Shown here in pieces: positions 13,361-41,507 of a stretch of 54,277 bases of DNA. The stretch lies in NCBI GenBank assembly GCA_964404305.1, contig CAYOJP010000001.1, positions 28,663-82,939 on the forward strand, in the 5' to 3' direction. Numbering within the stretch: position 1 is the first letter of the stretch; each line of letters starts with the position of its first letter. The notes beneath the pieces were generated by a model. That model had not been told where the DNA came from, did no database searches, and was given only the letters and a program-made list of their open reading frames with translations. Made by a program: the position numbers and the translations under genes. The DNA comes from an uncultured Gammaproteobacteria bacterium. Lineage in GTDB: Bacteria > Pseudomonadota > Gammaproteobacteria > JADZEE01.

Positions 13361-13699
13361 TCAGTCGCCCACCAGCAGCCGGAGCCCACCCGTCAACGAC
13401 GCGCCGAACACCGGGCCGCCGTCGAGCACCACGGCCTGCGCGTGGATCTCGACCCCGCGATAGCCGGGCACGGCCGGCAGCACGAGCGGCACCGACAGCT
13501 CGCCGCGCGCATCGAGCAGCCCCGCGAACGTGGCGCCGATCGCGCCGATCTGCTGGTCACAACCGAACCACTGCACGAGCCCAGGCTGCAGGCTGTAGGC
13601 GACGATCGCGAGCGCGTTCTGTGCACCCTCGACGTGCACGTGGCACGTGGCGCCGACCGCGGGCCGGCCGAACGCGCGCAGGTCGGGGCGATTGCCGCA
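13361..13699 (-). other. Shared C-terminal module, subtype I (last ~112 aa of the Kelch protein)
   Basis: The module reads CGNRPDLRAFGRPAVGATCHVHVEGAQNALAIVAYS...FGCDQQ...LDARGELSVPLVLPAVPGYRGVEIHAQAVVLDGGPVFGASLTGGLRLLVGD. It aligns by eye with the C-terminus of the BNR protein (15628-15996). Confidence 0.55.
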
Positions 13700-15418
13700 T
13701 GACCAGCCCGCCGCCGCGTCGCTGGGCGTCGGGCCGTAGACGCTGGTCACGCCGTCGCCGCCGTAGTGCACGAGCCGTTGCCGCGCCTCGTGGAACGCGA
13801 GCACGCCGTTCGCGATGTACGGCCCGGTGGCAATCGCATCGGGGTTCCAGTTCGTGCCGTCCCAGGCCCAGACCTGATCGCGCTGCGCCAGCACGACTGC
13901 GCCCCGCGCCGCGTCGAACGCGAGCGACGCGGTCCAGTCCTGCGGCAGCTGCGTCGGCGCCTTCTGCTGCCAATTGGTGCCGTCCCATTCCCAGGTGTCG
14001 CGCAGTTGCGCACTCCAGTTCTGGCCGCCGTAGAGCACGGTGCGCTGGCGCAGCGGGTCGAAACAGAGGCCGTGGTCGTGACGCGCCACCGGCGATGCCA
14101 ACGGCTGCAGCTGCGTCCACGCCACGCCGTCGAACTGCCAGGTGTCGTCGACCGGACCAAAGCTGCCGGTGCCGCCGAACAGCAGGACCCGGGTGCCGAG
14201 GCCCGCCATCGCGTGGCCGTACCGCGGCGGCGGCTGCTGCGCCGGAAACTGCAGGGTCCACGTGACCCCGTTCCAGATCCACGTGTCAGCCACCGCCTGC
14301 AGCGGCGGCAGCATGCCGCCGAACAAGACCATCGTCGTGCCCCTCGGCGCCATCGCCGAGTAGAGGCGCGCCCCTGGACTCAGGGCGCTGCGCTGCTGCC
14401 AGCCGCCGTTCCACACCCAGGTGCCGCCCGCACCGATGCCAGCGGTGATCAGGATCTCGCCACGCACCTGGTCGTAGGCCGCCGCCGGATCGGCCTGCAA
14501 CGGCATCTTGCCGTCGGTCCAGACCGGCACCCAGCTGGCGCCGTTCGCCCGCCAGACGTTGGCCCGGTCGGAGCCCGTCACCACATGGAGATGGTTGCCG
14601 TCCGACCAGCCGGGTGCCCGATCGCCGGCCGGCAGCGTGCCGCGCGCCGCCCATTGTGTTCCGTCCCAGCCCCAACAGTCACCGAACGGCAGCGACAGGC
14701 CGCCGCCGAGCAGCACGACCTCTTGGGTCGCCGGGTCGAAGGCAAGCCGGCTGCCGCGAGGCGACGGCGAAACGGCGGGCTGCTGCTGGAGCCACTGCCC
14801 GCCGTCCCATTCCCAGGTGTCGTTGAAGTAGCCGCCGAAGCCCTGCCCCCCGAACAAGACGACGCGCCCGCGCACCGGATCGAGCGCGAGCGCGGCCTGC
14901 GAACGCGGCGGCGGGCGCAGCGCGGGATTCAGCACGACCCAGGCCGTGCCGTTCCAGGCGTGCATGGCATCGGTGGGGTTCTGCAGGGGCAGCTGGTCCA
15001 GACCGCCGAACGCGATCACGCGGTTGCTGTTCTGGTCGAACGCGGCGGACGCTGCGACCGCCGGGGGCGAACCAGCCTGCGGCATCCACACCCACCCCGC
15101 GCCATCGGACACGTACGTGCGCGGCCAGCCGAGCCCGGCCCCCCCCTCCATCACCGCGACGATCTGGCCGCGCGAGGGGTCGTAGGCGACGAGCCGCGCG
15201 GCCCTGCCCTCGAGGCCGTCGGGCAGGTGAGGCCGCCAGCCGACACCGGCGAAGCTCCAGGTCCGCGCCAGCCCCGCCGTGAACCCGACCGCGCGCTGAT
15301 GCGCGGCGTCGAACACCACCGGATCGATGCGGGCTGGGCTACTGTCGACGCCGACCCAGGCCTGGGCGGGCAGCAGAGCGGCGAGCGCGGCGACAGCAGG
15401 CAGTTGGCGGATGTTCAT
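13361..15418 (-). CDS. Secreted Kelch / galactose-oxidase-type beta-propeller repeat protein with shared C-terminal module
   Basis: The ATG at 15418 gives the signal peptide MNIRQLPAVAALAALLPAQA. At least 8 repeats end in a W-x-W/F-D/N-G-x-x-W motif: DTWEWDGGQW, DCWGWDGTQW, GTWVWNGGW, DTWIWNGVTW, DTWQFDGVAW, DTWEWDGTNW and QVWAWDGTNW. Confidence 0.8.
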   Translation of the reverse strand: MNIRQLPAVAALAALLPAQAWVGVDSSPARIDPVVFDAAHQRAVGFTAGLARTWSFAGVGWRPHLPDGLEGRAARLVAYDPSRGQIVAVMEGGAGLGWPRTYVSDGAGWVWMPQAGSPPAVAASAAFDQNSNRVIAFGGLDQLPLQNPTDAMHAWNGTAWVVLNPALRPPPRSQAALALDPVRGRVVLFGGQGFGGYFNDTWEWDGGQWLQQQPAVSPSPRGSRLAFDPATQEVVLLGGGLSLPFGDCWGWDGTQWAARGTLPAGDRAPGWSDGNHLHVVTGSDRANVWRANGASWVPVWTDGKMPLQADPAAAYDQVRGEILITAGIGAGGTWVWNGGWQQRSALSPGARLYSAMAPRGTTMVLFGGMLPPLQAVADTWIWNGVTWTLQFPAQQPPPRYGHAMAGLGTRVLLFGGTGSFGPVDDTWQFDGVAWTQLQPLASPVARHDHGLCFDPLRQRTVLYGGQNWSAQLRDTWEWDGTNWQQKAPTQLPQDWTASLAFDAARGAVVLAQRDQVWAWDGTNWNPDAIATGPYIANGVLAFHEARQRLVHYGGDGVTSVYGPTPSDAAAGWSCGNRPDLRAFGRPAVGATCHVHVEGAQNALAIVAYSLQPGLVQWFGCDQQIGAIGATFAGLLDARGELSVPLVLPAVPGYRGVEIHAQAVVLDGGPVFGASLTGGLRLLVGD

Positions 15419-15627
15419 GAGGGTGCGGCAGGGCAACCAGTGTACCGGGCGCCGACCGGCAGGCGCTCCAGCCGCCATTCGTGCTGGGCATCGAGATCGG
15501 CGGCGCCGGTCGAGTCGCTGCTGCAGGCAGTGGCCGCGGTCACGCGTGCCGAGTGCGACGGCGTGGTACTCCGCTGGACCGCCAACCGACGCCGCGGCGC
15601 AGGCTCACGCCATCCGTCGACAACGCC

Positions 15628-15996
15628 TCAGTGGACGCTTGCCGACAGCACGTTCGTCGACACGGCGCCGCCGGGGTTGGCCCCGGGTGCAAGCAGCAGC
15701 GCACCGAACTGCAACTGGAAGCCGCCGCCGAGAGTGCCGGGGATGTTGAGCGGCAGCACTGCCGTGCCCGCCGGATCGGCAAGGACGAACGACGAGGTCA
15801 CCGGCGTGAAGAACATCCTGCAGTTCGTGAAGCCAAGCAAACCCAGATCGAACGGCGGTCGCAGGCAATCGAACCCGACGAACACGATGCCAGGGGCATT
15901 CGGCGGCGCGTCGACGAAGCCGTAGTGGAAGGTCGTGCCGATGGCGGGGAGGTCCTGAGCCATGAAGCGCGGTGTCACCGTCAGGCTGCTCTGGCA
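15628..15996 (-). other. Shared C-terminal module, subtype I (last ~122 aa of the BNR protein)
   Basis: The module reads CQSSLTVTPRFMAQDLPAIGTTFHYGFVDAPPNAPGIVFVGF...GFTNCRMFF...LADPAGTAVLPLNIPGTLGGGFQLQFGALLLAPGANPGGAVSTNVLSASVH. Confidence 0.55.
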
Positions 15997-17319
15997 CGCG
16001 GTGCCCCACTCAAGCGTGCGCGCCGCGGAGCCCAGGCGCAGGAAGTCGATGTAGCCATCGGGCCGGCTCGCCGGCAGGCCGCTGTAGCAGACCATCGCGC
16101 CGCTGCGAACGGCTTCGGCCCGCAGCCCGTCGACGCGGTCGAAGGAGTTGGCCTCGGTAGTCAACAGCAGCGGCACCGCGGGGGCGAGCGCCGGATCGGG
16201 CAGGACGGCGGCGCCGCCGGTCAAGGGATCGGGGCTCAGGATGCGGGCGTAGAGGTTCTGATAGTTCTCGCTGGCCTTGGCGAACACGGCGAACATCGTG
16301 CCGCCGTCGCCGCGCGCGAGGGAGAAGTGCTGGTAGGTGACGTTGCCGGCCGTGAGTCCGCTGTCGGTCTCGACCAGGCTCGTCGTCCACGTCGAATAGC
16401 CACTCGCCGCCGACGCGAACGCGACTTCGAGCGCGCCGCCTGCCGGGTTGGGCGGGCCGACCGAGTAGAGGATGTAGAGGTTGCCGACGTCGTCGCTGGC
16501 GATGCAGCTGCTGTTGGCCGCTCGCATGTTCGCTTGGTTGCCGCCATAGATCGGCACATCCGCGGCGGTCAGCCACTGCAGCGCGACCGAGTCGAAGGCG
16601 CGATACTTGATGCCGTAGAGCCCGGCGTTGGTGCGGAAGCTCAGGTGGAACGTCTCGCCGATCGCCTGCAGGCTCGCGAGCATGCCGTAGGAGTCGGTGT
16701 TGCAGCGGAACGGGGGCTGGAACGCCGTGTCACCCGTCCGCTTCACGAAGATGCCACCCGACCACGCGGCGAAGCCCGGAATGGTCGCCGGTGCGTTGTT
16801 GGTGTTGAAGGTGATGCCGATCGTGCCCTGGTCGGTGACTGCGATGTCGTTCGTGTAGCACTGGTTGCCGGTGGTCGTGCCAGCCAGCAGGATGTCAGGG
16901 GTGGCGACCCACTGATTGGTCAGGGTGTCGAACGCCTGGTAGTAGAGGTTGTGGAAGGTGCCCGTGTCGTTGCCGTGCCAACTGACGTGCACCAGATCGC
17001 ACCCGCGGTCGACGGCGATCGCGCCGCGACCGTCGCCGATCGTTGGCGTCTCGGCCATCCGCGTCCAGCTGGTGCCCTGGTCGGTCGACTTGTACAGGAA
17101 CAGGTGCCGGCCTGCCGGAGCCGTCGTGAGGTCGTAGTCCCAGGCGAGGCACCACATCGCGCCGTTTGGCTGGATGGCGAGGCTGCGAGTCCAGCCGCTC
17201 GAGAGGCGTGCCTGAAAGGGTGCGGTTCCGACATACACGGTGCCGGTCTGGGCCGGCAGGATGGCGCTCAGGAGAGCGGCGGAGACGAACGTCAGGACGG
17301 ACCGTGTAGTGGGCTGCAT
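15628..17319 (-). CDS. Secreted BNR/Asp-box (sialidase-like) beta-propeller protein with shared C-terminal module
   Basis: The ATG at 17319 is preceded by AGGAG and gives the signal peptide MQPTTRSVLTFVSAALLSAILPAQTG. An Asp-box is present (YKSTDQGTSWTRM). The enzymatic function is not assignable. Confidence 0.65.
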   Translation of the reverse strand: MQPTTRSVLTFVSAALLSAILPAQTGTVYVGTAPFQARLSSGWTRSLAIQPNGAMWCLAWDYDLTTAPAGRHLFLYKSTDQGTSWTRMAETPTIGDGRGAIAVDRGCDLVHVSWHGNDTGTFHNLYYQAFDTLTNQWVATPDILLAGTTTGNQCYTNDIAVTDQGTIGITFNTNNAPATIPGFAAWSGGIFVKRTGDTAFQPPFRCNTDSYGMLASLQAIGETFHLSFRTNAGLYGIKYRAFDSVALQWLTAADVPIYGGNQANMRAANSSCIASDDVGNLYILYSVGPPNPAGGALEVAFASAASGYSTWTTSLVETDSGLTAGNVTYQHFSLARGDGGTMFAVFAKASENYQNLYARILSPDPLTGGAAVLPDPALAPAVPLLLTTEANSFDRVDGLRAEAVRSGAMVCYSGLPASRPDGYIDFLRLGSAARTLEWGTACQSSLTVTPRFMAQDLPAIGTTFHYGFVDAPPNAPGIVFVGFDCLRPPFDLGLLGFTNCRMFFTPVTSSFVLADPAGTAVLPLNIPGTLGGGFQLQFGALLLAPGANPGGAVSTNVLSASVH

Positions 17320-17721: not shown

Positions 17722-18480
17722 GTGAGCATTCGCATTGGCGGAGTACCGTACGGCGTCGGCGCGCCCCTTCTCGCGGGCCTGGAATCCGACCCTGCCGTAA
17801 CGCTGCGCCGCGCGCCGCCGACGGAACTGATCACGGCCCTGCGCAGCGGGGCGCTCGATGCCGCCCTCGTGTCATCGGTCGAAGCCGTGCGCATGCCGGG
17901 CTACCGTGTCGCGCGCGACCTCGGCATCGCCTGCAAGCACGAGATCCGGTCGGTGCGCGCGTTCCGCCGCCGCGGCGTGCCGATCCGGCGCGTCGGGCTC
18001 GACCAGTCGAGCGCGACCTCGGTGGCGCTGCTCCGGCTGCTGCTCGTCAACGTGCACGCCCCCGACCTGGCGCCTGACCTCGTGTTCGAGACGATCGAGC
18101 CGACGCGGCGCCCGGCCGATCTCCCGCACGACGTCGTGCTGCTGATCGGCGACCACGGGCTGCACGCCGCCGCCGACGACCGCGACGTCTGGGACCTCGG
18201 CGCCGCGTGGCGGCGATGGACCGGACTGCCGTTCGTGTTCGCGCTGTGGGTGCTGCACCCGGACGCGGACGCCGCGCGCGTGCTGCCAGTCCTGCAGGCC
18301 GCCCGCGCCCGCGGCCGCACGCTCGGCGCGGTCGACGGCACGCACGGGGCCGCCCACTACGACCTCGACGACGAAGACCGGCGCGGCCTCGCACGTTTCT
18401 TTGCCGAGTGCCGCGCGCACGGGCTGGCCACGGCCGGCGATCCCCGCACCGTTTCCCCCTCGATCCCCGCATCTCGATGA
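17722..18480 (+). CDS. mqnA: Menaquinone (futalosine pathway) biosynthesis protein, MqnA/MqnD family (chorismate dehydratase-like)
   Basis: The 252 aa ORF has a GTG start. Family motifs are IRIGGVPYGVGAPLLAGL, LLIGDHGL and DLGAAWRRWTGLPFVFALW. Its stop codon overlaps the top6B ATG (ATGA). Confidence 0.75.
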   Translation: MSIRIGGVPYGVGAPLLAGLESDPAVTLRRAPPTELITALRSGALDAALVSSVEAVRMPGYRVARDLGIACKHEIRSVRAFRRRGVPIRRVGLDQSSATSVALLRLLLVNVHAPDLAPDLVFETIEPTRRPADLPHDVVLLIGDHGLHAAADDRDVWDLGAAWRRWTGLPFVFALWVLHPDADAARVLPVLQAARARGRTLGAVDGTHGAAHYDLDDEDRRGLARFFAECRAHGLATAGDPRTVSPSIPASR

Positions 18481-20156
18481 GCAACCAGTCGGGCCAGCAA
18501 GACCTGTTCGCAGCGACCAACGACACCACCACGATGGCAGCGAAGGAACCCAAGGAGAAGGCGCCGAAAGGCGACGGCAGCGGCCGCACCGCCGAGTCGA
18601 TGGCCACGCGCCAGCGCGAGATCTCGGTCAGCGAGTTCTTCACCAAGAACCGCCACCTGCTGGGCTTCGACAGTCCGCGCAAGGCGCTGCTGACCGCGGT
18701 GAAGGAAGCCGTCGACAACAGTCTCGACGCGTGCGAGGAAGCGCGCATCCTGCCGGAGATCCGCGTCGCCATCACGCGCATCGGCACGAGCGAGAAGCAG
18801 TTCACGATGACCGTCGAGGACAACGGGCCGGGCATCGTGAAGGCGCAGGTGCCGCACGTGTTCGGCCGCCTGCTCTACGGCAGCAAGTTCCACCGGCTGC
18901 GCCAGAGCCGCGGCCAGCAGGGCATCGGCATCTCCGCCGCCGGCATGTACGGGCAGATGACCACCGGCGCGCCGACGATCATCCGCTCGCGCATCTCGGC
19001 CAAGCACCCGGCGCTCGACGTCGCGCTGCGCATCGACACCGCCAGGAACCAGCCCGTGCGGCCGCGGCCGGCGCGCGAGTTCGAGTGGGACCGCGAGCAC
19101 GGCACCGAGGTCCTCATCGAACTCGAGGCCGAGTACCGCCGCGGCAGGGGCAGCGTCGACGAGTACCTCGGGCAGGTCGCCATCGCCAACCCGCACGTGA
19201 CGATCCGCTACCGTCCGCCCGACCTCGAGGCGCTCGCGCCGCCGGTGGTCTTCGAGCGCGCCACGAAGCAGGTGCCCGTCCAGCCGCGCGAGATCAAGCC
19301 GCACCCGCACGGCGTCGAGCTCGGCTTCCTGATGAAGATGATGAAGTCGACCGACAGCACCAAGCTGTCGGCCTTCCTCGCGGCCGACTTCTCGCGCGTC
19401 AGCAGCCGCGTCGCGAAGGAGATCTGCGAGCGGGCCGGTCTCGACCCCGCCGCGCGCGTCAAGAGCCTCGAGCACAAGTCGGCCGAGGCGCTCTACAAGG
19501 CGATCGCCGACACGAAGCTGATGAACCCGCCCACCGACTGCGTCTCGCCCATCGGCGAGGAGCTGATCGCCAAGGGCCTGGCCAAGGAGATCGGCGAGGC
19601 GCAGTTCTTCGTCTCGCGCACGCGCGCGCCGGCCGTCTACCGCGGCAATCCCTTCCAGGTCGAGGTCGGGTGCGCGCTCGGCGGCAGCCTGCCGGCCGAC
19701 GAGCCGGTGCGCCTGATGCGCTTCGCCAACCGCGTGCCGCTGCAGCACCAGGCCGGCGCCTGCGCGATCAGCAAGGCCGTGCTCGACGTCGACTGGCGCG
19801 GCTACGGCCTCTCGCAGCCCAAGGGCAGCCTGCCGATCGGCCCGGTGATCTTCATGGTGCACCTCGCCAGCGTCTGGGTGCCCTTCACCTCCGAGAGCAA
19901 GGAGGCCGTGGCGAGCTATCCCGAGATCCTCAAGGAACTCAAGCTCGCGCTGCAGGAATGCGGCCGGCAGATGCAGATCCACCTGCGCCGCCGCGCGCGC
20001 GTCGAGGACGAACTCAAGAAGCGCAGCTACATCGACAAGTACATCCCGCACATCGGCGAGGCGCTGCAGGAGATCCTGGGCCTGAAGGAGACCGAGAAGG
20101 AGGCCGTCGTCTCCAAGCTGCGCGAGACGCTCGAGAAGAGCCGCAAGCTGGGCTGA
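18477..20156 (+). CDS. top6B: DNA topoisomerase VI subunit B (GHKL ATPase + H2TH + transducer)
   Basis: The ATG at 18477 gives a 559 aa protein. Bergerat-fold motifs are present: EAVDNSLDA (N box), EDNGPGI (G1) and GQQGIGISAAGMY (G2). Further matches are PHPHGVELG, the transducer region FANRVPL and a C-terminal helical tail. The track ORF from 18207 is an N-terminal over-extension across mqnA. Confidence 0.92.
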   Translation: MSNQSGQQDLFAATNDTTTMAAKEPKEKAPKGDGSGRTAESMATRQREISVSEFFTKNRHLLGFDSPRKALLTAVKEAVDNSLDACEEARILPEIRVAITRIGTSEKQFTMTVEDNGPGIVKAQVPHVFGRLLYGSKFHRLRQSRGQQGIGISAAGMYGQMTTGAPTIIRSRISAKHPALDVALRIDTARNQPVRPRPAREFEWDREHGTEVLIELEAEYRRGRGSVDEYLGQVAIANPHVTIRYRPPDLEALAPPVVFERATKQVPVQPREIKPHPHGVELGFLMKMMKSTDSTKLSAFLAADFSRVSSRVAKEICERAGLDPAARVKSLEHKSAEALYKAIADTKLMNPPTDCVSPIGEELIAKGLAKEIGEAQFFVSRTRAPAVYRGNPFQVEVGCALGGSLPADEPVRLMRFANRVPLQHQAGACAISKAVLDVDWRGYGLSQPKGSLPIGPVIFMVHLASVWVPFTSESKEAVASYPEILKELKLALQECGRQMQIHLRRRARVEDELKKRSYIDKYIPHIGEALQEILGLKETEKEAVVSKLRETLEKSRKLG

Positions 20157-20200
20157 GGGAGGCCGCCGCGACGCGCACCACGACGACGCTCCCCGAAGCG

Positions 20201-20836: not shown

Positions 20837-20837
20837 A

Positions 20838-21502: not shown

Positions 21503-24454
21503 TCAGGGCCGCGGCGCGAGGCGGGCCTCGAGCGCGTCCAGCAGCGCCGAGAACTCGCCTTCGGCGCGCAGTTCGGCCAGATCCGCGGCGGACTCCAGCA
21601 CGCCGACGTCGTCCCAGCCGGCCTCGATCGCCAAACGCAGCGCGGCCAGTCCCTGCGCGCGCCAGACGGCGGACTCGGCCTGACCGGCGCCCGCCGCCTG
21701 CGCGTACAGCCCCGCCGCGACCCGCAGCGGCCGGGCCTGGCCCGGCAGCAGCTCGACGATCTCCCGGGCGGCGGCGGCGCAGCCGGCGGCATCGTCGAGT
21801 TGCAGGCAGGTCAGTCCGAGGAACCAGGCCGCGTTGAAGGCCGCGCCCTGCCCCGCGGGCTCGTCGGGGTTGCCGGCCAGCGCGAGGCGCGCGCACTCGA
21901 GCGCCTCCTGAAAGCGCCGTCGCGCGCCGGGAAGCTCGCCCGCGCTCCGCTCGACGGCGCCGAGGTTCACCAGGCTGCCGCCCAGCATGCCCTGCAGGCT
22001 CGGCACGTCGGGCGTGTCGCGGATCAGCAGCCGCAGCTCGTCGATCGAGCGCTCCAGCGCGGCCAGCGCCTCGGCCCGACGCTCGGGCTCCTTCAGCAGC
22101 AGCGTGCCGAGATTGTTCCAGCCGGAGGACAGCATCCGGCGCAGCACGACGTGGCGCGGAGCGTGCGCGAGCGCCTGCTCGAGGATCGCGATCGCCTGCC
22201 GGATCCGCGGCTCGACCTCCGCCGGCGCTTCGGTGCCGACCACGATCATGCGCACGCCGGCCGCGCCGAGGGCCCGCTCGGCATCCGCAGCGAGCGCCTC
22301 GAGATGCGGGGCGGACAGCTCCACGGCGCGCCGCACGGCGTCGAGCGCCTCGTCGGGGCGCCCCGCGAGCTTGAGCTGGCCGGCCTGGTTGTTCAGCGCC
22401 GCCACCAGGCTCGCGACGCCGGCCAGTCGTCGGGCCTCATCCGTCGCGCGCGCCAGCAGCGTCTCGTTGCAGGACACGTTCTCGGCGTGCGCGGCCAGCG
22501 CCTCCTCGTCGCGGCCGGCGGCGTGCTCGAGGACCGCGCGCTGGGCGAGCGACTCGACGAGCCGGCGCAGCGCGTCCCAGTCCTGCGGCGCGTCCTCCAC
22601 GCGTCGTCGCCGCACGCGCAGGCCCTCGTCGATCGCCGCCGCGGCCGGCTCGAGCTGCCCGAGTTCGAGCAGCGCGTAGCCGCGCCCCGCCTCGGCGTCG
22701 CCGAGCGACTCGAGCGCGGCGGCGTCCCGCGGGTCGAGCGCCAGCAACTCGCGCGCCAGCGCGGCCTGTCGTGCGAACGCCTCGCCGGCCTCGGGATTGC
22801 GGCCCAGCTGCACGAGCAGGAACGCGCAGCGCGCCGAGGCGCGCGCGACGAGCCGCTTCAGGGCCGGATCGTCGGTGCGCTCGGACAGGAACTCCTCGTA
22901 GAAGGCCAGCGCGCTCTCGAGCAGCCGGCGGCGCACGGGCTGCAGATCGGGCACGTGCAGCAGGTCCTCCTCGGCCACCTGGGTGAGCAGCACGTCCACG
23001 GCGGCCTGGGCGCGCGCGAAATTGGCCTCGGCGCGCGCGCGCTGGATCTCGGTCTCGTCGTACGCGCGGCCGATCTCCCGCGCCGCGCGCCGCTGCTGGA
23101 AGGCGTAGGCGCCCGGACCGCCGACGACGAGCAGCAGGCCGGCGGCGAGGCCCACGCTGGCCGCGGGATGGCGCTGCGTCCAGCGGCGCAGCCGCAGCAG
23201 CGGGCCCGGGCGCCGCGCGTGCACCGGGCGCCGGGCGAGCGCGTTGTCGAGGTCCTCGGCGAAGGCGCGCGCGCTCGCGTAGCGGCGCTCGCGGTCGCGG
23301 TCCATGGCCTTCAGGCAGACGGTCTCGGCGTCGCGCGGCACCGCGGCGTTGAGCTCGCGCGGCGCGATGACGCGCCCGTCGAGGATGCGCCGGCGCGTGG
23401 CCTCGACGTCGCCCCCGGCGAAGGGCGAGCGCAGCGTGAGCAGCTCGTACAGCGTGGCGCCGAGCGCGTAGACGTCGCTGCGGGCGTCGAGACCGGCATG
23501 CTCGCCGCGCACCTGCTCGGGCGACATCCACGCCAGCGACCCGAGCTGCGCGCCGGTGCCCGTGAGCCGCGCGCTGCCCGCCGCGCTCGCCAGGCCGAAG
23601 TCGAGCAGCAGCACGCGACCCTCCGCCGTCAGCATGATGTTGCTGGGCTTGACGTCGCGATGCAGCACGCCCCGTTCGTGCGCGTGCTGCAGCGCGTCGG
23701 CCACGGCGCGCGCCACGCGCAGGCAGACCGTCGGCCACGCGCCGGCGAACAGCGTCGCGGCCGCGCGCGAACCGCTGCCGCCCTCCGTCCCGCTCTCCCG
23801 GCCCGCGGCGCGCTCGACGGCCGCGAGCAGGTCGGCCCCGCCCAGCCGCGCCGGGTCGCGCCCGGCGAAGGCGCGCAGCAGGTCCTCGAGGGAGGCGCCG
23901 CGCACGCGCTCCATCGCGTAGTACGGGATGCCGTGCTCCTCGCCGCCCGCGTGCACCGGCACGATGCCCGGATGCGCAAGCCGTGCCACCGCCTCCACCT
24001 CGCGGGCGAAGCGTTCGCGCGCGCCCGGGAAGTGCAGCAGGTCGGGACGCACGAGCTTGAGCGCGACCTCGCGCTGCAGGCCGACCTGCTCGGCGAGGAA
24101 GACCACGCCCATGCCGCCCCCGCCGAGGCGCGAGAGGATCCGGAAGCCGCCGATGCGTTCGGGCAGCGGCGCCGCGCCCGTCGTCGCCCCCGCGAAACCG
24201 ATCGCGCGCAACTGCTCGATGCGCGAACGCAGCGCGGAGGCGCGGTCCGGGTGCGCGCGGCAGACCTCTTCGAGCGCCGCCGGCCCCTCGCGATCGAGGC
24301 GCTCGAGGGCCGCGGCCACGAGGTCGGAGAGCGACGCCGAGTCGTCCGACTCCGGCCGCGGCGCCGCCTCGTGCTCGGCCGAATCCAAGGGATGATCCGT
24401 GGGGTGACCCGTGGGCGCGGACCGCGATCCGGCGCCGCGCGCGCACTCTAGCAC
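21503..24454 (-). CDS. Ser/Thr protein kinase with one TM helix and a long TPR-like C-terminal region
   Basis: The 983 aa ORF has a GTG start. Hanks motifs are present: LGGGGMGVVFLAEQ, ALKLV, LHRDVKPSNIML, DFGLA and SPEQ. A TM helix (SVGLAAGLLLVVGGPGAYAF) is followed by a repetitive Ala/Leu-rich helical repeat region. Confidence 0.9.
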   Translation of the reverse strand: MLECARGAGSRSAPTGHPTDHPLDSAEHEAAPRPESDDSASLSDLVAAALERLDREGPAALEEVCRAHPDRASALRSRIEQLRAIGFAGATTGAAPLPERIGGFRILSRLGGGGMGVVFLAEQVGLQREVALKLVRPDLLHFPGARERFAREVEAVARLAHPGIVPVHAGGEEHGIPYYAMERVRGASLEDLLRAFAGRDPARLGGADLLAAVERAAGRESGTEGGSGSRAAATLFAGAWPTVCLRVARAVADALQHAHERGVLHRDVKPSNIMLTAEGRVLLLDFGLASAAGSARLTGTGAQLGSLAWMSPEQVRGEHAGLDARSDVYALGATLYELLTLRSPFAGGDVEATRRRILDGRVIAPRELNAAVPRDAETVCLKAMDRDRERRYASARAFAEDLDNALARRPVHARRPGPLLRLRRWTQRHPAASVGLAAGLLLVVGGPGAYAFQQRRAAREIGRAYDETEIQRARAEANFARAQAAVDVLLTQVAEEDLLHVPDLQPVRRRLLESALAFYEEFLSERTDDPALKRLVARASARCAFLLVQLGRNPEAGEAFARQAALARELLALDPRDAAALESLGDAEAGRGYALLELGQLEPAAAAIDEGLRVRRRRVEDAPQDWDALRRLVESLAQRAVLEHAAGRDEEALAAHAENVSCNETLLARATDEARRLAGVASLVAALNNQAGQLKLAGRPDEALDAVRRAVELSAPHLEALAADAERALGAAGVRMIVVGTEAPAEVEPRIRQAIAILEQALAHAPRHVVLRRMLSSGWNNLGTLLLKEPERRAEALAALERSIDELRLLIRDTPDVPSLQGMLGGSLVNLGAVERSAGELPGARRRFQEALECARLALAGNPDEPAGQGAAFNAAWFLGLTCLQLDDAAGCAAAAREIVELLPGQARPLRVAAGLYAQAAGAGQAESAVWRAQGLAALRLAIEAGWDDVGVLESAADLAELRAEGEFSALLDALEARLAPRP

Positions 24455-24475: not shown

Positions 24476-25090
24476 TCAGCCCGGTTCGGCGCGGCCCTGC
24501 CGCTCGAGCGCCTTGGCCAGCCGCGCCAGCGCGCGGAACAACTGCTGTCGCGCGGCGGCTTCGCTGCAGCCCAGCTGCGCGCCGATCTCGCCGCCGGAGA
24601 GTCCCGCGATGCGCGACATGACCACGATCTCGCGGTCGTGCTCGTCCAGCGTCTCGAAGGCGCGCTCGATGCGCTCCATCGTCTCGCGGCCCGCGGCAAG
24701 CGCGCTCGGCGAGCAGAAGGAGCGGTAGACGTCGAGGACCTGCGTGTCGCCCTCCGCGCCGCGCGCGTGCAGCGGCACCTCGCGCCCGGCGTCGCGGCGC
24801 TGCGCCTGCCAGAAGTCGGCCCGGTCGGCCAGCTTGCGCGCGGTCGTGGCGTAGAGCCAGGCGCGGAAACCGGCCTCGCCGTTCCAGCGGAAGCGGTCGA
24901 CGTGCGCCAGGACCTCGCGGCAGGCCGACTGCACGATGTCGCTGGCCGACTCGCGCGCGCGCAGCGCGGGACCGCAGCGCAGCCGCACCCAGGCGCGCAG
25001 CGCCGGCAGGTTCTCCGCGAGCAGCTCCTCGACCGCCCGGCCGTCGCCCCGCGTGGCGCGCTCGACGAGCTCCTGGCTGGGCGGGGGCAT
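24476..25090 (-). CDS. ECF-type RNA polymerase sigma-70 factor (kinase-associated)
   Basis: The ATG at 25090 gives a 204 aa protein. The sigma-2 region reads DIVQSACREVLAHVDRF...FRAWLYATTARKLAD. The sigma-4 HTH reads REIVVMSRIAGLSGGEIGAQLGCSEAAARQQLFRALARL. It is 21 bp upstream of the kinase gene. The rest of track ORF 24476..26716 is antisense to eutB. Confidence 0.85.
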   Translation of the reverse strand: MPPPSQELVERATRGDGRAVEELLAENLPALRAWVRLRCGPALRARESASDIVQSACREVLAHVDRFRWNGEAGFRAWLYATTARKLADRADFWQAQRRDAGREVPLHARGAEGDTQVLDVYRSFCSPSALAAGRETMERIERAFETLDEHDREIVVMSRIAGLSGGEIGAQLGCSEAAARQQLFRALARLAKALERQGRAEPG

Positions 25091-30018: not shown

Positions 30019-32826
30019 TCAGTCCGTCGGCAGGGCCAGCCGCCGCGCGAGGCGCAGGCCGAGCTGCCCGACGCGCTGTTCGCCGTGCGTGCGGATGCGG
30101 AAGGCCGAGGAGCACTGCGCCGGCACGGTGCTCCAGGCACCTCCGACGGAGGTGTAGAACGGCCCCGATCCCCCTGGCTGTCCGCCGTCGCCCGGATCGG
30201 CGTCCCGCGGCGCGTCGGCATGCGGGTCCCGCGTCCACTCGGCGACGTTTCCGATCGTGTCGTACAGCCCGAACGCGTTGGGCCGGAAGCTGCCGACGGG
30301 CGCATGGCTGGCGAATCCGTCGTCGAGGAGCGCCTCGTGCGGCCAGGCGATGTCGGCCTGCCGCGCGAGGCTGGCGTCCGAGACGTTGCCGGCGCCCTGC
30401 AGGCTGCCGACGTCGCCGCCGGTCCACCACGCCTGCGTCGAGCCGGCGCGAGCGGCGTACTCCCACTGCGCCTGCGTGGGCAGGACGTGTCCGAAGCGCG
30501 CCGCCAGTTCGCGCGCCTCGCCCCAGGTCACGCTCTCGACGGGATGATCGGGACCGTACCGCTCCGTGGCCTGCCGGGCCTCGGCCTCCGACGACGCGTA
30601 GGCGCTCGGGTTGCTCCCCATGCCGCGTTCCCACTGCGCCTGCGTCACCTCGTACGCGGCGATGAAGAACGGGTCGAGCCGCACGCTCTGCACGCGCCAC
30701 GTGTCCGGCGTCGCCGAGGGGTCGTAGTTGGGGGCCTCGGGGTCGCTGCCCTGCCCGCCGAACAGGAACGTCCCGCCGGGCAGCAGCACGAACAGCGGGC
30801 CGCTCGCCTCGCTCATCGCGTAGCGGCCGTCGGCCGTCGCCACGGGGCGCTCGCCCAGTTGCACGTCCCAGAACTCCCAGAGCCCCGTGGCCGCGTTGCG
30901 CCCCAGCGGCACGAGGCCGAGCTGCGGCACGATGCGCAGTCCGCCATAGGCCGGGCAGGCGTCGGGATCGGCGATCGACGCGATGGCCTGCTCCCAGAGC
31001 GCCGCGGGTTCGATGAGCGAAACGCGCTGCAGGTCGCGCGCGCGCGCCAGCCGCCGCTCGACGCCGGGGACGGTCTGCGCCGAGAACCTGTCCAGGCCGT
31101 CGATCAGCGCGCTCAGCGTCGCGTGCCACCAGGAGTCTTCCTGCGACGCGAAGCGCGGACTCGCGGGATCGCCGCCCGGCTCGGCGCGCGCCGCCAGGGC
31201 CGCGAGCGTCGCGCGGTGGGCGTCGTTCCGCCCGAGCAGCGCGCGCGCCGCGTCGAGCCAGGCGGCCAGCGCCGGAACGTGCTCGGGGTCGGCGGGCCAC
31301 AGCAGCGCCTCCTCGCGCTGCAACTGTTCGAGGCGCTGCACGTCCGAGAGGCGCAGCACGTCGGCGAGGTTGCGATCGGCCTCGCCCTGCGCGGCCTGCG
31401 CGATCGCCCGCCCCCGCGCCTCGACGTGCGACGAGTAGAGCAGGCCCCCGTACACTGCCGCGAGCACGGCCGCAGCGGCGCCTGCCAAGAGGCGGTTGCG
31501 GCGCACCCACTTGCGCGCCTCGGCCCACGCCCCCGTCTCGTAGGCACGCACGACGCGGCTCTCGAGGAACGCGCGCAGGTCCTCCGCCAGCTCGGCCATG
31601 CTCGCGTAGCGCGCCGGAGCCTCCCGCGCCATGGCCTTCTCGCAGATCGCCGCGAGTTCGGGGGGCACGGCAGGCACGAGCCGCTGCAGCGGAACGGGCG
31701 GCCCGCGCCGGACCAGGGCCAGCACGTCGAGCGGCGACGACCGCCCCGCGTCCGTGAACGGCGCCCTCCCCGCGAGCACGTGGTAGAGGATCGCTCCGAG
31801 CGCGTAGACGTCGGCCGCCGGGCCGAGCAGCGCCACCTGCCCCGAGGCCTGCTCGGGCGCCATGTACGAAGGCGTTCCGACGACGTCGCCCTCGAGCGTG
31901 AGCAGCGAGGAGCCGGGGGCCGCGTCGCGGCGCTCGCTGCGCAACCCGGACTCCGCGGGCTCGTGCTCGGCTGCGGCCAGCACCCGCGCGAGTCCCCAGT
32001 CCATCACGTACACCTCGCCGTACTCGCCGAGCATGATGTTGGCCGGCTTCAGGTCGCGGTGCACGACGCCGCGATCGTGCGCGAAGGACATGGCCTCCGC
32101 GACGCGCACCAGGCTGCCGACGAGGCGCGTCGTGTTCCAGGGGGACGGCGCCGCGCCGGCCGACGCGGCGCGCGCTTCGAGCACCTCGTGCAGCGAGCGC
32201 CCCTTCACGAGCTTCATCGTGAAGTAGACCGCGCCCTGCGCGTCGAGCCCGAGGTCGTGCACCGGCACGATCGCGGGATGGTCGAGCTGCGCCGTCACCT
32301 GCGCCTCCTCGACGAAGCGCCCGAGGCGGCGCGTGCTGCCCGGCGCCGGCCGCCCGGGACCGGCCGCGGCCGCGCCGTCGCGCAGCACCTTCATCGCGAC
32401 GTGACGCTGAAGCGTGGCGTCGAAGGCGCGTCGGACGACGCCCTGCGCGCCGCGCGCGATCTCGCCGCCGTCGACGTAGCGGTGCGCCGGGCCGGCCGCG
32501 TCCGCCAGCTTCGCGATGACGTCCGCGAGCTGCGCCACGCGCGGTTCGCGCCCGCCGGCGCCCGGCGACCCCGGCTCCGACGAGCCGCCGCGCCACCCGC
32601 TCAACGACGCGGGGGGCGGCAGCGGTTCCTGCAGCAGGGCCGACGCGCGCTGCCGGTTCGCCAGCTCCCAGCAGGCGCCCAGCTCGCGCAGTTCTCCGGC
32701 GAGCGCGGGATGCGCGCGACACAGCGCCTCGACATCGAGCCGCTCGTCGCGCGCGAGCCCCTCGAGGAGCACCCGCTCGGCCGTCTCCGACGCACGTGCG
32801 TCCTGCGGATCAAGAGGCGAGCCCAC
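30019..32826 (-). CDS. Ser/Thr protein kinase with TM helix and extracytoplasmic FGE-sulfatase (SUMF1-like) domain
   Basis: The 935 aa ORF has a GTG start 1 nt after the sigma gene stop. Kinase motifs are VAMKVL, VHRDLKPANIML, DWGLA and APEQ. The TM helix is LLAGAAAAVLAAVYGGLLYS. C-terminal FGE-type motifs are YEVTQAQWE, HPVESVTWGEARE, LPTQAQWEYAARAG, NAFGLYDTIGNVAEWT and GGAWS. Confidence 0.9.
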   Translation of the reverse strand: MGSPLDPQDARASETAERVLLEGLARDERLDVEALCRAHPALAGELRELGACWELANRQRASALLQEPLPPPASLSGWRGGSSEPGSPGAGGREPRVAQLADVIAKLADAAGPAHRYVDGGEIARGAQGVVRRAFDATLQRHVAMKVLRDGAAAAGPGRPAPGSTRRLGRFVEEAQVTAQLDHPAIVPVHDLGLDAQGAVYFTMKLVKGRSLHEVLEARAASAGAAPSPWNTTRLVGSLVRVAEAMSFAHDRGVVHRDLKPANIMLGEYGEVYVMDWGLARVLAAAEHEPAESGLRSERRDAAPGSSLLTLEGDVVGTPSYMAPEQASGQVALLGPAADVYALGAILYHVLAGRAPFTDAGRSSPLDVLALVRRGPPVPLQRLVPAVPPELAAICEKAMAREAPARYASMAELAEDLRAFLESRVVRAYETGAWAEARKWVRRNRLLAGAAAAVLAAVYGGLLYSSHVEARGRAIAQAAQGEADRNLADVLRLSDVQRLEQLQREEALLWPADPEHVPALAAWLDAARALLGRNDAHRATLAALAARAEPGGDPASPRFASQEDSWWHATLSALIDGLDRFSAQTVPGVERRLARARDLQRVSLIEPAALWEQAIASIADPDACPAYGGLRIVPQLGLVPLGRNAATGLWEFWDVQLGERPVATADGRYAMSEASGPLFVLLPGGTFLFGGQGSDPEAPNYDPSATPDTWRVQSVRLDPFFIAAYEVTQAQWERGMGSNPSAYASSEAEARQATERYGPDHPVESVTWGEARELAARFGHVLPTQAQWEYAARAGSTQAWWTGGDVGSLQGAGNVSDASLARQADIAWPHEALLDDGFASHAPVGSFRPNAFGLYDTIGNVAEWTRDPHADAPRDADPGDGGQPGGSGPFYTSVGGAWSTVPAQCSSAFRIRTHGEQRVGQLGLRLARRLALPTD

Positions 32827-33661: not shown

Positions 33662-35182
33662 ATGCACGCCGCCCGCCCGTCCCTGCGCCTCGTCGCCCTG
33701 CTCTCGGCGCTCTCGCTGGCACCGACCGCGCACGCCGACGACCTGCAGGTCTTCACCGATCAGGCCGCCTTTCTCGCCGCCACCGGCGCGACGAACGCCA
33801 CCGGGCCGCTGCCGGACCTCGGGCTCGTGAGTTCCGCCACCGTCGGCAGCATCACGTTCAGCGTCGCGCCCGGCGGCGACTACCTGGCCATCGGCGCGTC
33901 GGGCACGCCCGCCGAGCCCGACTGGACCGCGCTGCTCGACGGGCACGACATCGCGCTCGGCTACGAGAACCTGCAGCTCGATGCCGACACGCCGGTGTAC
34001 GCGCTGGGCATCGAGTTCGCGCAGCCCGACGCGACGATGCCGAGCTGGGGCGGCACGCCGGTCGATTCGACCTTCGAGATCTCGCTCTGGGACGGCGCCA
34101 CGCTCGTCGGGCAGGTGCAGCTGGCGTCGCTGCCCGTCGATGTCGCGAGCTTCCTCGGGGTGTGGAGCGCGGCGGCCTTCACGACGGTCACGATCATCGA
34201 CGTCACGGAGACCAGCTTCATCGACGACAACGAGTACTTCGGCCAGGCCTGGACGGGCGACGTGCCGGCGCCGCCGCGCATCTCGCTCGCGCCCTGCACC
34301 GACAAGGAGCTGTTCCTGCTCGAGACGGGGGCGGTCAGCGTCACGGGGCCCCTGCCCGACCTGGGCCTGGTCGATTCCGTGCGGCTCGGCAGCGTCACCT
34401 TCGGCATCGGCCCGGGCGGCGACGACCTGATCGTCGGCGCCTTCGGCACGCCGGCCGCGCCCGACTGGTGCCCGCAGATCCCCGGCCACGACTTCGCGCA
34501 GGGTTACGAGAACCTGCAGGTCGACTTCGACGGCTACGTCACGGCCTTCGGCTGCGACTTCGTGCAGCCCGACGCGACCATGCCGCCCTTCGGCGGCACG
34601 CCGGTCGACTCGACCTACGAGGTCTCGCTCTACGACGGCGACACGCTCCTCGGCACGGTGACGTTCTCCTCGATCCCGGTCGACGTGCTGACCTTCCTCG
34701 GCGTGTGCAGCGACACGCCCTTCAACCGCGCGATCCTCGTCGACGTGACGCCGAGCTCCTACGTCGACGACGACGAGTTCTACGGCGAGTTCTATGCGGC
34801 GCCGAGCCCCGGCCCCTGGAGCAACCTCGGGCACGGCCTGACCGGCGTGTTCGGCGACCCGCTGCTGTCCGGCACGGGCACGCTGCTGGCCGGCGAGCCC
34901 GGCACGCTCGTGCTGCAGCGCGCGACGCCCTCCGCGCCGGCCTATCTGTTCGTCGCGCTCGGCAGCGCGCCGACGCCCTTCAAGTGCGGCACGCTGGTGA
35001 CGGTGCCGGTGCTCGCGACGATGGTCTTCGCGACCGACACGCTCGGCGAGGTTCCGCTGGCCTGGCCGGCCTGGCCGGCGGGCCTCTCGGGACTGAGCCT
35101 GTCCTTCCAGTACGCGCTGCCCGACGCGGCGGCCGTCTGCGGCGTCGCGCTCAGCAACGGACTGCGCGCCGACCTGCCCTGA
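33662..35182 (+). CDS. Secreted protein of unknown function: two tandem copies of a ~170 aa uncharacterised domain plus shared C-terminal module
   Basis: The 506 aa ORF has the signal peptide MHAARPSLRLVALLSALSLAPTAHA. Its internal duplication is described under the repeat feature. High GC3 is maintained throughout. Confidence 0.7.
   Translation: MHAARPSLRLVALLSALSLAPTAHADDLQVFTDQAAFLAATGATNATGPLPDLGLVSSATVGSITFSVAPGGDYLAIGASGTPAEPDWTALLDGHDIALGYENLQLDADTPVYALGIEFAQPDATMPSWGGTPVDSTFEISLWDGATLVGQVQLASLPVDVASFLGVWSAAAFTTVTIIDVTETSFIDDNEYFGQAWTGDVPAPPRISLAPCTDKELFLLETGAVSVTGPLPDLGLVDSVRLGSVTFGIGPGGDDLIVGAFGTPAAPDWCPQIPGHDFAQGYENLQVDFDGYVTAFGCDFVQPDATMPPFGGTPVDSTYEVSLYDGDTLLGTVTFSSIPVDVLTFLGVCSDTPFNRAILVDVTPSSYVDDDEFYGEFYAAPSPGPWSNLGHGLTGVFGDPLLSGTGTLLAGEPGTLVLQRATPSAPAYLFVALGSAPTPFKCGTLVTVPVLATMVFATDTLGEVPLAWPAWPAGLSGLSLSFQYALPDAAAVCGVALSNGLRADLP
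33740..34795 (+). repeat. Intragenic tandem duplication (protein-level repeat, period 180 aa / 540 nt)
   Basis: Copy 1 reads TGPLPDLGLVSSATVGSITFSVAPGGDYLAIGASGTPAEPDW...GHDIALGYENLQLDADTPVYALGIEFAQPDATMPSWGGTPVDSTFEISLWDGATLVG...LPVDVASFLGVWS...DVTETSFIDDNEYFG. Copy 2 reads TGPLPDLGLVDSVRLGSVTFGIGPGGDDLIVGAFGTPAAPDW...GHDFAQGYENLQVDFDGYVTAFGCDFVQPDATMPPFGGTPVDSTYEVSLYDGDTLLG...IPVDVLTFLGVCS...DVTPSSYVDDDEFYG. Synonymous positions have diverged, so the duplication is old. Confidence 0.85.
34817..35182 (+). other. Shared C-terminal module, subtype II (last ~121 aa)
   Basis: The module reads WSNLGHGLTGVFGDPLLSGTGTLLAGEPGTLVLQRATPSAPAYLFVALGSAPTPFKCGTLVTVPVLATMVFATDTLGEVPLAWPAWPAGLSGLSLSFQYALPDAAAVCGVALSNGLRADLP. 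Confidence 0.6.
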
Positions 35183-36513: not shown

Positions 36514-36517
36514 GCCC

Positions 36518-39661: not shown

Positions 39662-39662
39662 G

Positions 39663-41081
39663 ATGGCCGTCCGGCCGCCCGCGCGCCCCCTCGCCCTGCT
39701 GCTGCTCGCCGGCTGCGTCGTCGGCCCCGAGTACGCGCGCCCCGAGCTGCCGGTGCCGGAGGCCTGGCGTGACGGCTCGGCCGAGGCCGCGACGCTCGCC
39801 GACACCGCCTGGTGGGAGCTGCTCGGCGACCCGGCGCTGCGGGAGCTGATCGACGAGGCGCTGCGCAACAACCTCGACGCGCGCACGGCCCTCGAGCGCG
39901 TCGTCGAGGCGCGCGCGCTCGTGGCCTTCACGCGTGCCGATCAGGGCCCCTTCGCGGATCTGTTCGCCGGCGCCGACAAGGGCGCCGCCAGCCGCGACGG
40001 CCGCCCGCCCGTGCCGACGGGCAGCAACGGCACCGAGCTGTACGGCGCCGGCCTCGACCTCTCCTGGGAACTCGACCTGTTCGGACGCCTGCAGCGCGCG
40101 ACCCAGGCCGAGGAGTTGCGCCTGCTCGCGAGCGAGGAGCTGCGCCGCGACGTGCAGATCACGCTCATCAGCGAGGTCGCGCGCGCGTGGTTCGACCTGC
40201 GGCAGCTGCAGCTCTCGCTCGACATCTCGCGCCGGACCGTGCTGGCCAACCTGCGCACCGAAGAACTCACCCGCGTGCGTTTCGAGGGCGGCGTGGCCTC
40301 CGAACTCGACTGGCGGCAGGCGCAGAGCGAACGCTACCGCACCGAGGCGGTCGTCGCGAACCTGCAGCGCCTGCACGCGCGCACCGAGAACGAGCTGTCG
40401 GTGCTGCTCGGCCGCCCGCCGCACGTGGTGCGGCGCGGCCTCGGCCTGGCCGACCAGCCTGTGCCGCCGGCGGTGCCGGCGGGCCTGCCCTCGGCGCTGC
40501 TCGAGCGCCGCCCCGACCTGCGCGCCGCCGAGCTGCGGCTTGCGGCGGCCACCGCGCGCATCGGCGAAGCCCAGGCGATCCTGTTCCCGCGCGTGGCCCT
40601 CACCGGGTCGGGCGGCTGGGCCAGCACCGAACTCTCCGACCTCACCGACTCGGACGCCGACTTCTGGGGCCTGGCCCTCGACCTGACCTGGCCGCTGTTC
40701 AACGGCGGCAAACTGCAGGCCGGCGTCGAGGTCGCGCAGGCGCAGCAGCGCCAGGCGGCGCTGGCCTACGAGCAGGCGGTCCTGCGCGCGCTGCAGGAGG
40801 TCGAGGACGCGCTGGCCGACCTGCGCTCCTTCGGCGAGCAGCGCGTGCTGCAGGACGCGCGCGCCGAGGCCGAGCGCGAGCTGCTGCGGCTCTCGGTGCT
40901 GCGCTACGAGGGCGGCGTGGCCAGCTACCTCGAGGTGCTCGTCGCGCAGCGCAGTCAACTGACCGCCGAACTCGAGCGCGCGCAGGCCTGGCGCGACCAG
41001 CTCGTGGCGCTGGTGCGCCTGTACAAGGCGCTCGGCGGCGGCTGGGACCTGCAAGAACCGGGCGCCGCGCACCGCCGTTGA
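39663..41081 (+). CDS. Outer membrane factor lipoprotein of the RND system (NodT/OprM family)
   Basis: The 472 aa ORF has a lipobox (LLLAGCVVGPEY) and two OEP repeats. It starts 1 nt after the RND stop. Confidence 0.9.
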   Translation: MAVRPPARPLALLLLAGCVVGPEYARPELPVPEAWRDGSAEAATLADTAWWELLGDPALRELIDEALRNNLDARTALERVVEARALVAFTRADQGPFADLFAGADKGAASRDGRPPVPTGSNGTELYGAGLDLSWELDLFGRLQRATQAEELRLLASEELRRDVQITLISEVARAWFDLRQLQLSLDISRRTVLANLRTEELTRVRFEGGVASELDWRQAQSERYRTEAVVANLQRLHARTENELSVLLGRPPHVVRRGLGLADQPVPPAVPAGLPSALLERRPDLRAAELRLAAATARIGEAQAILFPRVALTGSGGWASTELSDLTDSDADFWGLALDLTWPLFNGGKLQAGVEVAQAQQRQAALAYEQAVLRALQEVEDALADLRSFGEQRVLQDARAEAERELLRLSVLRYEGGVASYLEVLVAQRSQLTAELERAQAWRDQLVALVRLYKALGGGWDLQEPGAAHRR

Positions 41082-41141
41082 GCGGTGCGCGACGCCCGGG
41101 TTGTCAGACGACTTGATCGTTCCCCAGAGTCAGGGCCCGCA

Positions 41142-41507
41142 TCAGGGCGTGGTGCCCTGCACGGCGTTGCTCAAGGCGACCCCTGCCGGTCCGCCGGCAT
41201 CCTGGATGCCGATCTGGATGTACAGCTCCGTGCCCGACGGAACGCCCGCCGGCCACGCGAACGGCAAGTGGATCGTGCCGCTCGGCGACGTCGCCATGTT
41301 CAGCGCGAGCGCCACCGGCGTCGGGACGAGCGTGCCGCCCTTGAACGGCAAGGGATTCCCGACGAGCGAGGCGAACAGCACCGCCGCCGCCGAGGGCTTG
41401 CCGTTGCTGAGGTCCAGCGCGCAGGCGCTGTGCGGCTGCAGCGTGCCGCTGCCCACGAGCGCCGGAGCGCCGCCCGTGCCGGCCAGGGCATGGCCCAGGT
41501 CGCACCA
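41142..41507 (-). other. Shared C-terminal module, subtype II (last ~121 aa)
   Basis: The module reads WCDLGHALAGTGGAPALVGSGTLQPHSACALDLSNGKPSAAAVLFASLVGNPLPFKGGTLVPTPVALALNMATSPSGTIHLPFAWPAGVPSGTELYIQIGIQDAGGPAGVALSNAVQGTTP. It is collinear with the module at 34817-35182. Confidence 0.6.

Follow-up and report, generated by a model that had tools for sequence, protein, structure and literature searches.

The DNA analysed here (hereafter, the window) is a stretch of 54,277 nucleotides from contig CAYOJP010000001.1 of assembly GCA_964404305.1, with a G+C content of ∼72%. It contains five genes whose products differ in their N-terminal regions (heads) and share a related C-terminal module. A first-pass annotation made from the letters of the window had singled out these five proteins as secreted carriers of a candidate sorting or attachment tag. 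Translation confirmed the five genes and their tails: in each carrier, a C-terminal segment of 110-126 residues continues up to the stop codon, and the N-terminus has the features of a signal peptide, in that a basic residue is followed by a hydrophobic stretch and then by an A-x-A-like site.

The first carrier is a Kelch-propeller secreted protein of 685 residues (13361-15418, reverse strand) that starts with the signal peptide MNIRQLPAVAALAALLPAQA and matches the Kelch families of Pfam at E 1.3e-27; its module (115 residues plus stop) occupies positions 13361-13708. The second is a BNR/sialidase-like secreted protein of 563 residues (15628-17319, reverse strand) with the signal peptide MQPTTRSVLTFVSAALLSAILPAQT and a module of 126 residues plus stop (15628-16008), which has a 7-residue insertion in the PF.GG loop. 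The third, on the forward strand (28300-30003; 567 residues), is an S1 (trypsin-like) serine protease (Pfam Trypsin, E 2.3e-6) followed by an immunoglobulin (Ig)-like region and then by a divergent module of 110 residues plus stop (29671-30003). The fourth, a secreted protein of 506 residues (33662-35182, forward strand) called here the Dup protein, is made of two copies of an unassigned domain of ∼175 residues and ends with a module of 121 residues plus stop (34817-35182). The fifth, called here the PAP2 protein, is a secreted vanadium-haloperoxidase-like enzyme of 766 residues (41142-43442, reverse strand), and its module (121 residues plus stop, 41142-41507) is our reference copy. Regarding the heads, the assignments proposed initially were supported by Pfam for the Kelch protein, the protease (Trypsin) and the haloperoxidase-like enzyme (DUF6851 and VCPO_2nd), and by an internal duplication of 173 residues at 56% identity (E 3e-70) for the Dup protein, which is otherwise without a Pfam match. 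However, the BNR assignment is weak (E 0.3), and the IPT/TIG domain proposed for the S1 protein was not matched in the Pfam search.

The tails of the Dup and PAP2 proteins can be aligned over 124 residues at 44% identity (E 3e-22), and the remaining pairs of tails are weak by BLAST, with E values between 0.01 and 1. Such weak pairwise values would be in line with a similarity due to compositional chance in an Ala/Gly/Pro-rich genome of 72% G+C, an explanation to which we give practically no credit, because profile and iterated searches separate the five carriers from every other open reading frame (ORF). A hidden Markov model (HMM) built solely from relatives of the PAP2 tail, the subtype II HMM, was run against all the ORFs that the window contains in its six frames. 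The five best ORFs were exactly the five carriers, each aligned at its C-terminal end: PAP2 (165.6 bits, E 1e-50), Dup (154.1 bits, E 5e-47), BNR (17.8 bits, E 8e-5), Kelch (15.7 bits, E 3.5e-4) and S1 (10.9 bits, E 0.011). The ORF ranked sixth had an E value of 3.2, and the window contains no sixth copy of the module.

Iterated searches with jackhmmer gave a concordant picture. Started from the PAP2, Kelch or S1 tail (three of the four seeds tried), they reached the same ∼116 ORFs, and the PAP2-seeded search took in the BNR tail at E 5.9e-14; the BNR tail alone recruited no relatives at 1e-3, and its link to the family rests on the PAP2-seeded run. When the Kelch, BNR and S1 tails were used singly as phmmer queries against the ORFs of related loci (∼0.8 million residues), the best matches were the C-terminal ends of other proteins. 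Moreover, hhalign, working with very shallow alignments, matched the Kelch and BNR tails colinearly to subtype II across 101 columns, at an E value of 9.7e-5 and a probability of 58%, and MAFFT aligned the five tails colinearly from end to end. Compositional chance is thus refuted by the gap in the HMM search of the window, by the convergence of the jackhmmer searches and by the thousands of database relatives described below, and the end-to-end colinear alignments argue in the same direction.

Because the profile, iterated, hhalign and MAFFT results agree, the five tails are, as judged by sequence comparison, members of one superfamily. The first-pass annotation had divided them into a subtype I (Kelch and BNR) and a subtype II (Dup and PAP2), the protease tail being a weaker member of the latter. 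This scheme has to be revised, as the 'subtypes' are branches of a single superfamily. The protease tail, for its part, is a subfamily of its own and not a weak member of subtype II; a close relative is the tail of an S8 protease with a TIG domain, encoded on a related locus (L027, E 2.2e-15). Over its 110-125 residues, the module follows the consensus W.dlG..laG..G.P.L.G.G.L...(PFKGGTLVP)...G...lp..wPaG.p.G..ly.Q.wi.Da....G.aaSNal...tP-stop, ending the protein. A separate stretch of the BNR-like protein (residues ∼213-303) is faintly similar to the C-terminal module of the same protein (96 residues, 27% identity, pairwise E 1.5e-4), and this may be a chance similarity or a degenerate second sandwich.

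The module is predicted to be an Ig-like beta-sandwich domain. AlphaFold2, run on the PAP2 tail with 20 sequences, gave a compact all-beta Ig-like sandwich with seven core strands (predicted local distance difference test, pLDDT, 92; predicted template modelling score, pTM, 0.81), and the model of the BNR tail (pLDDT 74) has seven core strands in the same order, with a disordered insertion at the position of the extra residues. Foldseek comparison of both models with the PDB returned nothing at E≤1e-3, and a profile search of PDB sequences found no match. The best structural matches, with query-normalised template modelling (TM) scores of 0.4 to 0.57, were generic, namely arrestin-like, TRAP, neocarzinostatin-like, FN3 and Ig folds, nanobodies, adhesin repeats, CARDB and macroglobulin domains.

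This predicted fold bears on the main rival to a sorting function, namely that the module is a domain for ligand binding or adhesion of a generic kind, similar to a carbohydrate-binding module (CBM) or a lectin, which tethers secreted proteins to polysaccharide, to a prey or host surface or to the biofilm matrix; the C-terminus would then be merely preferred, with no dedicated sorting machinery. A beta-sandwich is typical of CBMs and adhesin domains, and the weak Foldseek neighbours of the module include the beta-glucan-binding GNBP3, CBM56, GbpA, adhesin repeat domains and CARDB. However, none of the structural matches is specific: all have E>1e-3, and their TM scores do not exceed 0.57.

The position of the module in the protein is a second element to be considered in this respect. 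In 1.19 Mb of loci together with the window, we counted 220 significant occurrences of the domain, and the module ends at most 8 residues from the stop codon in 216 of them (∼98%); the four exceptions are two fragments, an internal copy (L051) and an extended copy (L080). For the 150 top database matches, the module ends at the last residue or at most 4 residues from it in 149 cases. In addition, the last residue is a proline in 90 of 115 proteins. CBMs and adhesin repeats occur at either end of proteins and in tandem. A module that is ∼98% terminal with a conserved proline before the stop codon is therefore far more strictly placed than would be expected of such domains, and no tandem copies of it were seen. 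Moreover, the heads are mostly not carbohydrate-active enzymes, glycoside hydrolases being absent from the 25 most frequent head families of 80 full-length carriers. We consequently consider a binding domain rather unlikely, although the existence of rare internal, N-terminal and stand-alone copies and the lack of a machinery gene linked to the carrier genes, both detailed later in the text, are in its favour.

The bias towards the C-terminus that the first-pass annotation had anticipated was accompanied, as it had also proposed, by an enrichment among proteins with a signal-peptide-like start. By a crude rule, not SignalP, such an N-terminus was assigned to 87 of 102 carriers (85%); the rule also flags 96 (44%) of the 220 ORFs in their neighbourhood, which corresponds to an odds ratio of 7.5 (p 4e-13). 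The heads of the 80 full-length carriers match 46 Pfam families. These include FG-GAP variants, Kelch, beta-helix, the peptidases C25 and S8, glucose/sorbosone dehydrogenase (GSDH) and pyrroloquinoline quinone (PQQ) propellers, as well as cupredoxin, BNR, haem peroxidase and an HpiC1-like cyclase. In none of these 80 proteins is the tail covered by a Pfam family, and ten full-length members are named in their sources either 'hypothetical protein' or according to the head.

The presence of proteases among the carriers (S1 in the window; S8 and C25 in related loci) raises the question of a C-terminal pro-domain or intramolecular chaperone, comparable with the PPC domain or the subtilase P-domain, that would be removed after folding or passage and would not serve as an address. 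The strict C-terminal position suits a removable extension, and the PPC domain (PF04151) is also a beta-sandwich added C-terminally to secreted enzymes. Nevertheless, we regard this explanation as improbable. Peptidase heads are few, with C25 and S8 in two proteins each among the 80 carriers, and in most carriers the head is not a protease, or even an enzyme of any kind (for example FG-GAP, Kelch, beta-helix and cupredoxin). A single chaperone domain for at least 46 unrelated folds is implausible, and neither PF04151 nor P_proprotein matched the tails at E≤10.

To what extent the family was already known was assessed with the 2025 copy of Pfam-A and with NCBIfam 20.0, which holds the models for type IX secretion system (T9SS) and -CTERM sorting signals, in scans of 23 single tails at E≤10. 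Only isolated noise matches were obtained, and the five full-length proteins of the window had no Pfam or NCBIfam match on their tails at E≤1. In particular, no tail matched a CBM or dockerin family of Pfam. The module is thus not covered by a sorting or binding domain annotated in these two collections, and a full-text search of the published literature found no description of it. The domain family appears to be undescribed in Pfam, NCBIfam and the literature searched, while C-terminal sorting and anchoring domains are, as a kind, already known.

Among these, the type A C-terminal domain (CTD) of the T9SS of Bacteroidota (Por_Secre_tail; TIGR04183/PF18962) has several properties in common with the module. 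It ends many Sec-exported proteins that are otherwise unrelated, a genome having dozens of copies; it is a small Ig-like beta-sandwich of seven core strands, as the model predicts for the module; it is conserved up to the last residues, and its cargo genes are scattered and unlinked to the machinery. The module could then be a highly divergent but true T9SS CTD, and the hosts of the carriers would possess a cryptic T9SS. We consider this very improbable in spite of the shared logic of a Sec signal, diverse cargo and a terminal seven-strand sandwich (predicted). As the first-pass annotation had suspected from the T9SS tail consensus, no T9SS CTD model (TIGR04183, TIGR04131 or PF18962) matched the five proteins at E≤1 or the 23 tails at E≤10. 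Type A CTDs are shorter than the 110-125 residues of the module. Solved CTDs are not specific Foldseek matches either, since HBP35 (5y1a) comes at rank 34 with an E value of 0.028 and a TM score of 0.43. The module also has motifs of its own (W.DLG, PFKGGTLVP, WPAG.P, Q.aI.D and G.A.SNA...P-stop). Finally, the module is present in Planctomycetota (Planctomycetes-Verrucomicrobia-Chlamydiae, PVC, group), where T9SS is not reported, and T9SS was detected in Bacteroidetes only in a survey of 2,484 bacterial genomes (PMC4793230). The same survey noted that clades for which few systems are known probably have others still to be discovered (PMC4793230). Among the genes of the window and of the flanks, none of the T9SS core genes (PorK/L/M/N, Sov, PorV or PorU) was seen.

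The -CTERM signals (PEP-CTERM/exosortase, LPXTG/sortase, MYXO-CTERM and GlyGly-CTERM) are also lineage-specific C-terminal tags carried by diverse signal-peptide proteins in many copies per genome. However, they consist of a short motif, a transmembrane helix and a basic tail, whereas the module is predicted to be a folded soluble domain of ∼120 residues. That the five tails lack these elements had been noted initially, and it holds for the larger family: an LPXTG or PEP motif is present in none of 116 tails, the tails examined have no transmembrane-like segment, and the NCBIfam -CTERM models do not match them. For the most hydrophobic 19-residue segment within the last 45 residues, the median hydropathy is 0.94, and a value of 1.6 is reached in only 2 of these 116 tails.

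Two other known systems can be compared with the module. Dockerins of cellulosomal enzymes are usually C-terminal modules that occur on many secreted enzymes and dock to a cell-surface partner, which represents a possible mode of action here. However, dockerins are calcium-binding helical repeats of ∼70 residues, whereas the module is predicted to be an all-beta sandwich, and no candidate cohesin-like partner was found. In the type XI secretion system (T11SS, Slam), a folded C-terminal domain of Sec-exported cargo specifies transfer across the outer membrane. This domain is an 8-stranded barrel carried by lipoproteins or hemophilin-like proteins of Proteobacteria, and the module has no sequence or fold match to it.

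The size and distribution of the family were estimated in several ways. When 1.84 billion representative proteins, clustered at 50% identity, were searched exhaustively with HMMER, at least 7,894 clusters had E≤1e-3; 4,289 of them remained with a cut-off of 1e-10, and 326 with one of 1e-30. A collection with one genome per GTDB species was scanned with two exact peptide patterns taken from a five-sequence alignment; 173 stretches were confirmed, the closest match to the module having 58% identity. At this level of identity, the genome from which the window comes does not seem to be included in the collection, and an exact look-up of the Dup protein in the assembly index gave no record. The presence of the family, the PF07638-type ECF sigma factors and a gene content rich in kinases and sulfatases suggest that the window is of planctomycete origin. 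The JGI metagenomes provided 369 further stretches. Word-indexed homology searches returned one fragment (P0019) with the Kelch and BNR alignment and 28 short fragments with a 23-sequence alignment.

The 79 loci kept from the genome scan belong to 16 assemblies, and 14 of these are labelled Planctomycetota, Phycisphaerales or Phycisphaeraceae, the labels being those of the submitters of the metagenome-assembled genomes (MAGs). In the other two assemblies, contigs of 2.4 kb and 2.7 kb are binned outside Planctomycetota. The module genes concerned lie on VGVB01000102 (L062, 2.4 kb), from a Gammaproteobacteria MAG, and on DATNCU010000290 (L071, 2.7 kb), from a Thermoanaerobaculia MAG, and they probably reflect mis-binning rather than a true occurrence outside Planctomycetota. 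Since 13, 12 and 9 of the kept loci come from single MAGs, counts that are lower bounds owing to the pattern-limited scans, the number of copies per genome reaches at least into the dozens. Two or more carriers are present in 53 loci, and the window alone has five in 54 kb. Two very long module-bearing contigs come from one metagenome, Ga0315336_1000007 (L109, 1.88 Mb), with four carriers within 20 kb, and Ga0315336_1000025 (L105, 0.93 Mb); together, they may constitute a near-complete carrier genome.

Based on its exact C-terminal position, its conservation up to the final proline, its association with diverse Sec-exported heads, its many copies per genome and its restriction to one lineage, we favour, with moderate confidence, the interpretation of the module as a C-terminal sorting or anchoring domain. 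Once past Sec, the folded domain would be recognized by a receptor or a translocon of the envelope, and the cargo would be exposed at the surface, released or retained. To our knowledge, such a five-part pattern is otherwise seen for sorting tags, above all for the T9SS CTD. In our reading, a planctomycete clade (MAGs labelled Planctomycetota, Phycisphaerales or Phycisphaeraceae) adds a lineage-specific domain of 110-125 residues to the C-terminus of a large and varied set of Sec-exported proteins. The N-terminal signal peptide would carry the protein across the inner membrane, and an envelope component, which might be an outer-membrane translocon, a shuttle or a receptor, would then recognize the folded C-terminal domain and deliver the cargo to the cell surface or the medium, or retain it there. 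The role of the domain would be analogous to that of the T9SS CTD, a family to which it is unrelated in sequence. It is by this analogy that we propose recognition by a machinery and a destination at the surface or outside the cell, as well as any cleavage of the tail or its covalent attachment. More tentatively, the module could be the cargo signal of an unrecognized outer-membrane secretion or surface-anchoring system, restricted to a Phycisphaerae-related clade of Planctomycetota, that would have evolved independently in parallel to T9SS and through which much of the secretome would pass. As far as we know, the transfer of proteins across the planctomycete outer membrane, or their fixing to it, is poorly understood.

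Several observations weigh against a sorting function. The crude rule used for signal peptides softens the enrichment reported above. Regarding position, the sole exception among the 150 best database matches, P0152, has a signal peptide, then the module and then 370 residues. Locus L051 encodes a protein (566-2224, forward strand) with a true internal copy, in which a head and the module are followed by 172 residues, and in the protein P0172 of locus L080 (9722-10645, forward strand), a 34-residue extension continues past the module; the surroundings of the latter gene on its 21.9-kb contig were not informative. These three non-terminal copies indicate that a free C-terminus is not absolutely required, and, as the rare internal or N-terminal copies show, the domain is able to fold and be maintained elsewhere in a protein. 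Moreover, minimal proteins exist in which the module is preceded only by a signal peptide and a short linker (P0004, and L073 at 973-1437, forward strand), and these stand-alone proteins fit a binding or structural role as well.

The neighbourhood of the carrier genes has to be mentioned in the same context. Clustering of 565 neighbouring ORFs from 160 loci, in the 1.19 Mb already mentioned, revealed no recurrent machinery-like partner beside the carrier genes. The recurrent neighbours were Ser/Thr kinases, extracytoplasmic function (ECF) sigma factors, FG-GAP and other secreted repeat proteins, a resistance-nodulation-division (RND) pump, TadG-like proteins and a histidine kinase, none of which is plausible as a dedicated partner. 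The largest cluster of the first round of clustering (14 ORFs, 12 loci) turned out to be an antisense artefact of the module itself, and that of the second round was a loose set of CarboxypepD_reg repeats that included near-identical copies of one genomic region. The lack of a linked machinery does not help the sorting interpretation, but we do not take it as counter-evidence because T9SS cargo genes are likewise unlinked to the genes of their machinery. Every testable premise of the export, anchoring or processing mark proposed in the first-pass annotation held, and the results that would have contradicted it (a match to an annotated sorting or binding domain, mostly internal copies, or no enrichment among signal-peptide proteins) were not obtained, while the sorting role itself continues to be argued by analogy.

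If the module is a sorting tag, its strictly C-terminal presence on thousands of proteins would make it a predictor of the surface and extracellular proteome of the uncultured carriers, a handle for finding the missing machinery and, in engineering, a tag that could be transferred to other proteins for their export or display. Moreover, it would constitute an independent evolutionary solution to the problem solved by the T9SS CTD. Even as a binding module it deserves a family model, as the 50%-identity clusters counted above have none in Pfam or NCBIfam.

In the window, the five carrier genes are dispersed among ordinary chromosomal genes that encode kinases, an ECF sigma factor, an RND efflux operon, topoisomerase VI, a sulfatase, the ethanolamine ammonia-lyase large subunit EutB and a bacterial microcompartment (BMC) protein. 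A FG-GAP/VCBS repeat protein of 1,238 residues with a signal-peptide-like start (2287-6003, reverse strand) does not possess the module, although FG-GAP heads are the commonest carriers elsewhere, which indicates that the tag is not obligatory for such heads. The EutB gene (24638-26614, forward strand, E 1e-197) is followed by a gene for a BMC-domain shell protein (27528-28181, forward strand), and the presence of both directly upstream of the gene of the S1-protease carrier suggests a microcompartment-associated locus. A Ser/Thr protein kinase with a C-terminal FGE-sulfatase (formylglycine-generating-enzyme-like) domain is encoded at 30019-32826 (reverse strand), two more large kinases at 21503-24454 and 44929-47394, and a PF07638-type ECF sigma factor at 47465-48016. 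Finally, the window contains the two subunit genes of a type IIB topoisomerase, topoisomerase VI, which is uncommon in bacteria. These genes (18207-20156 and 43708-44922, both on the forward strand) are 23 kb apart and do not form an operon; subunit B matches Topo-VIb_trans at E 2.8e-55, and subunit A matches the TOP6A/Spo11 Toprim domain at E 3.9e-58.

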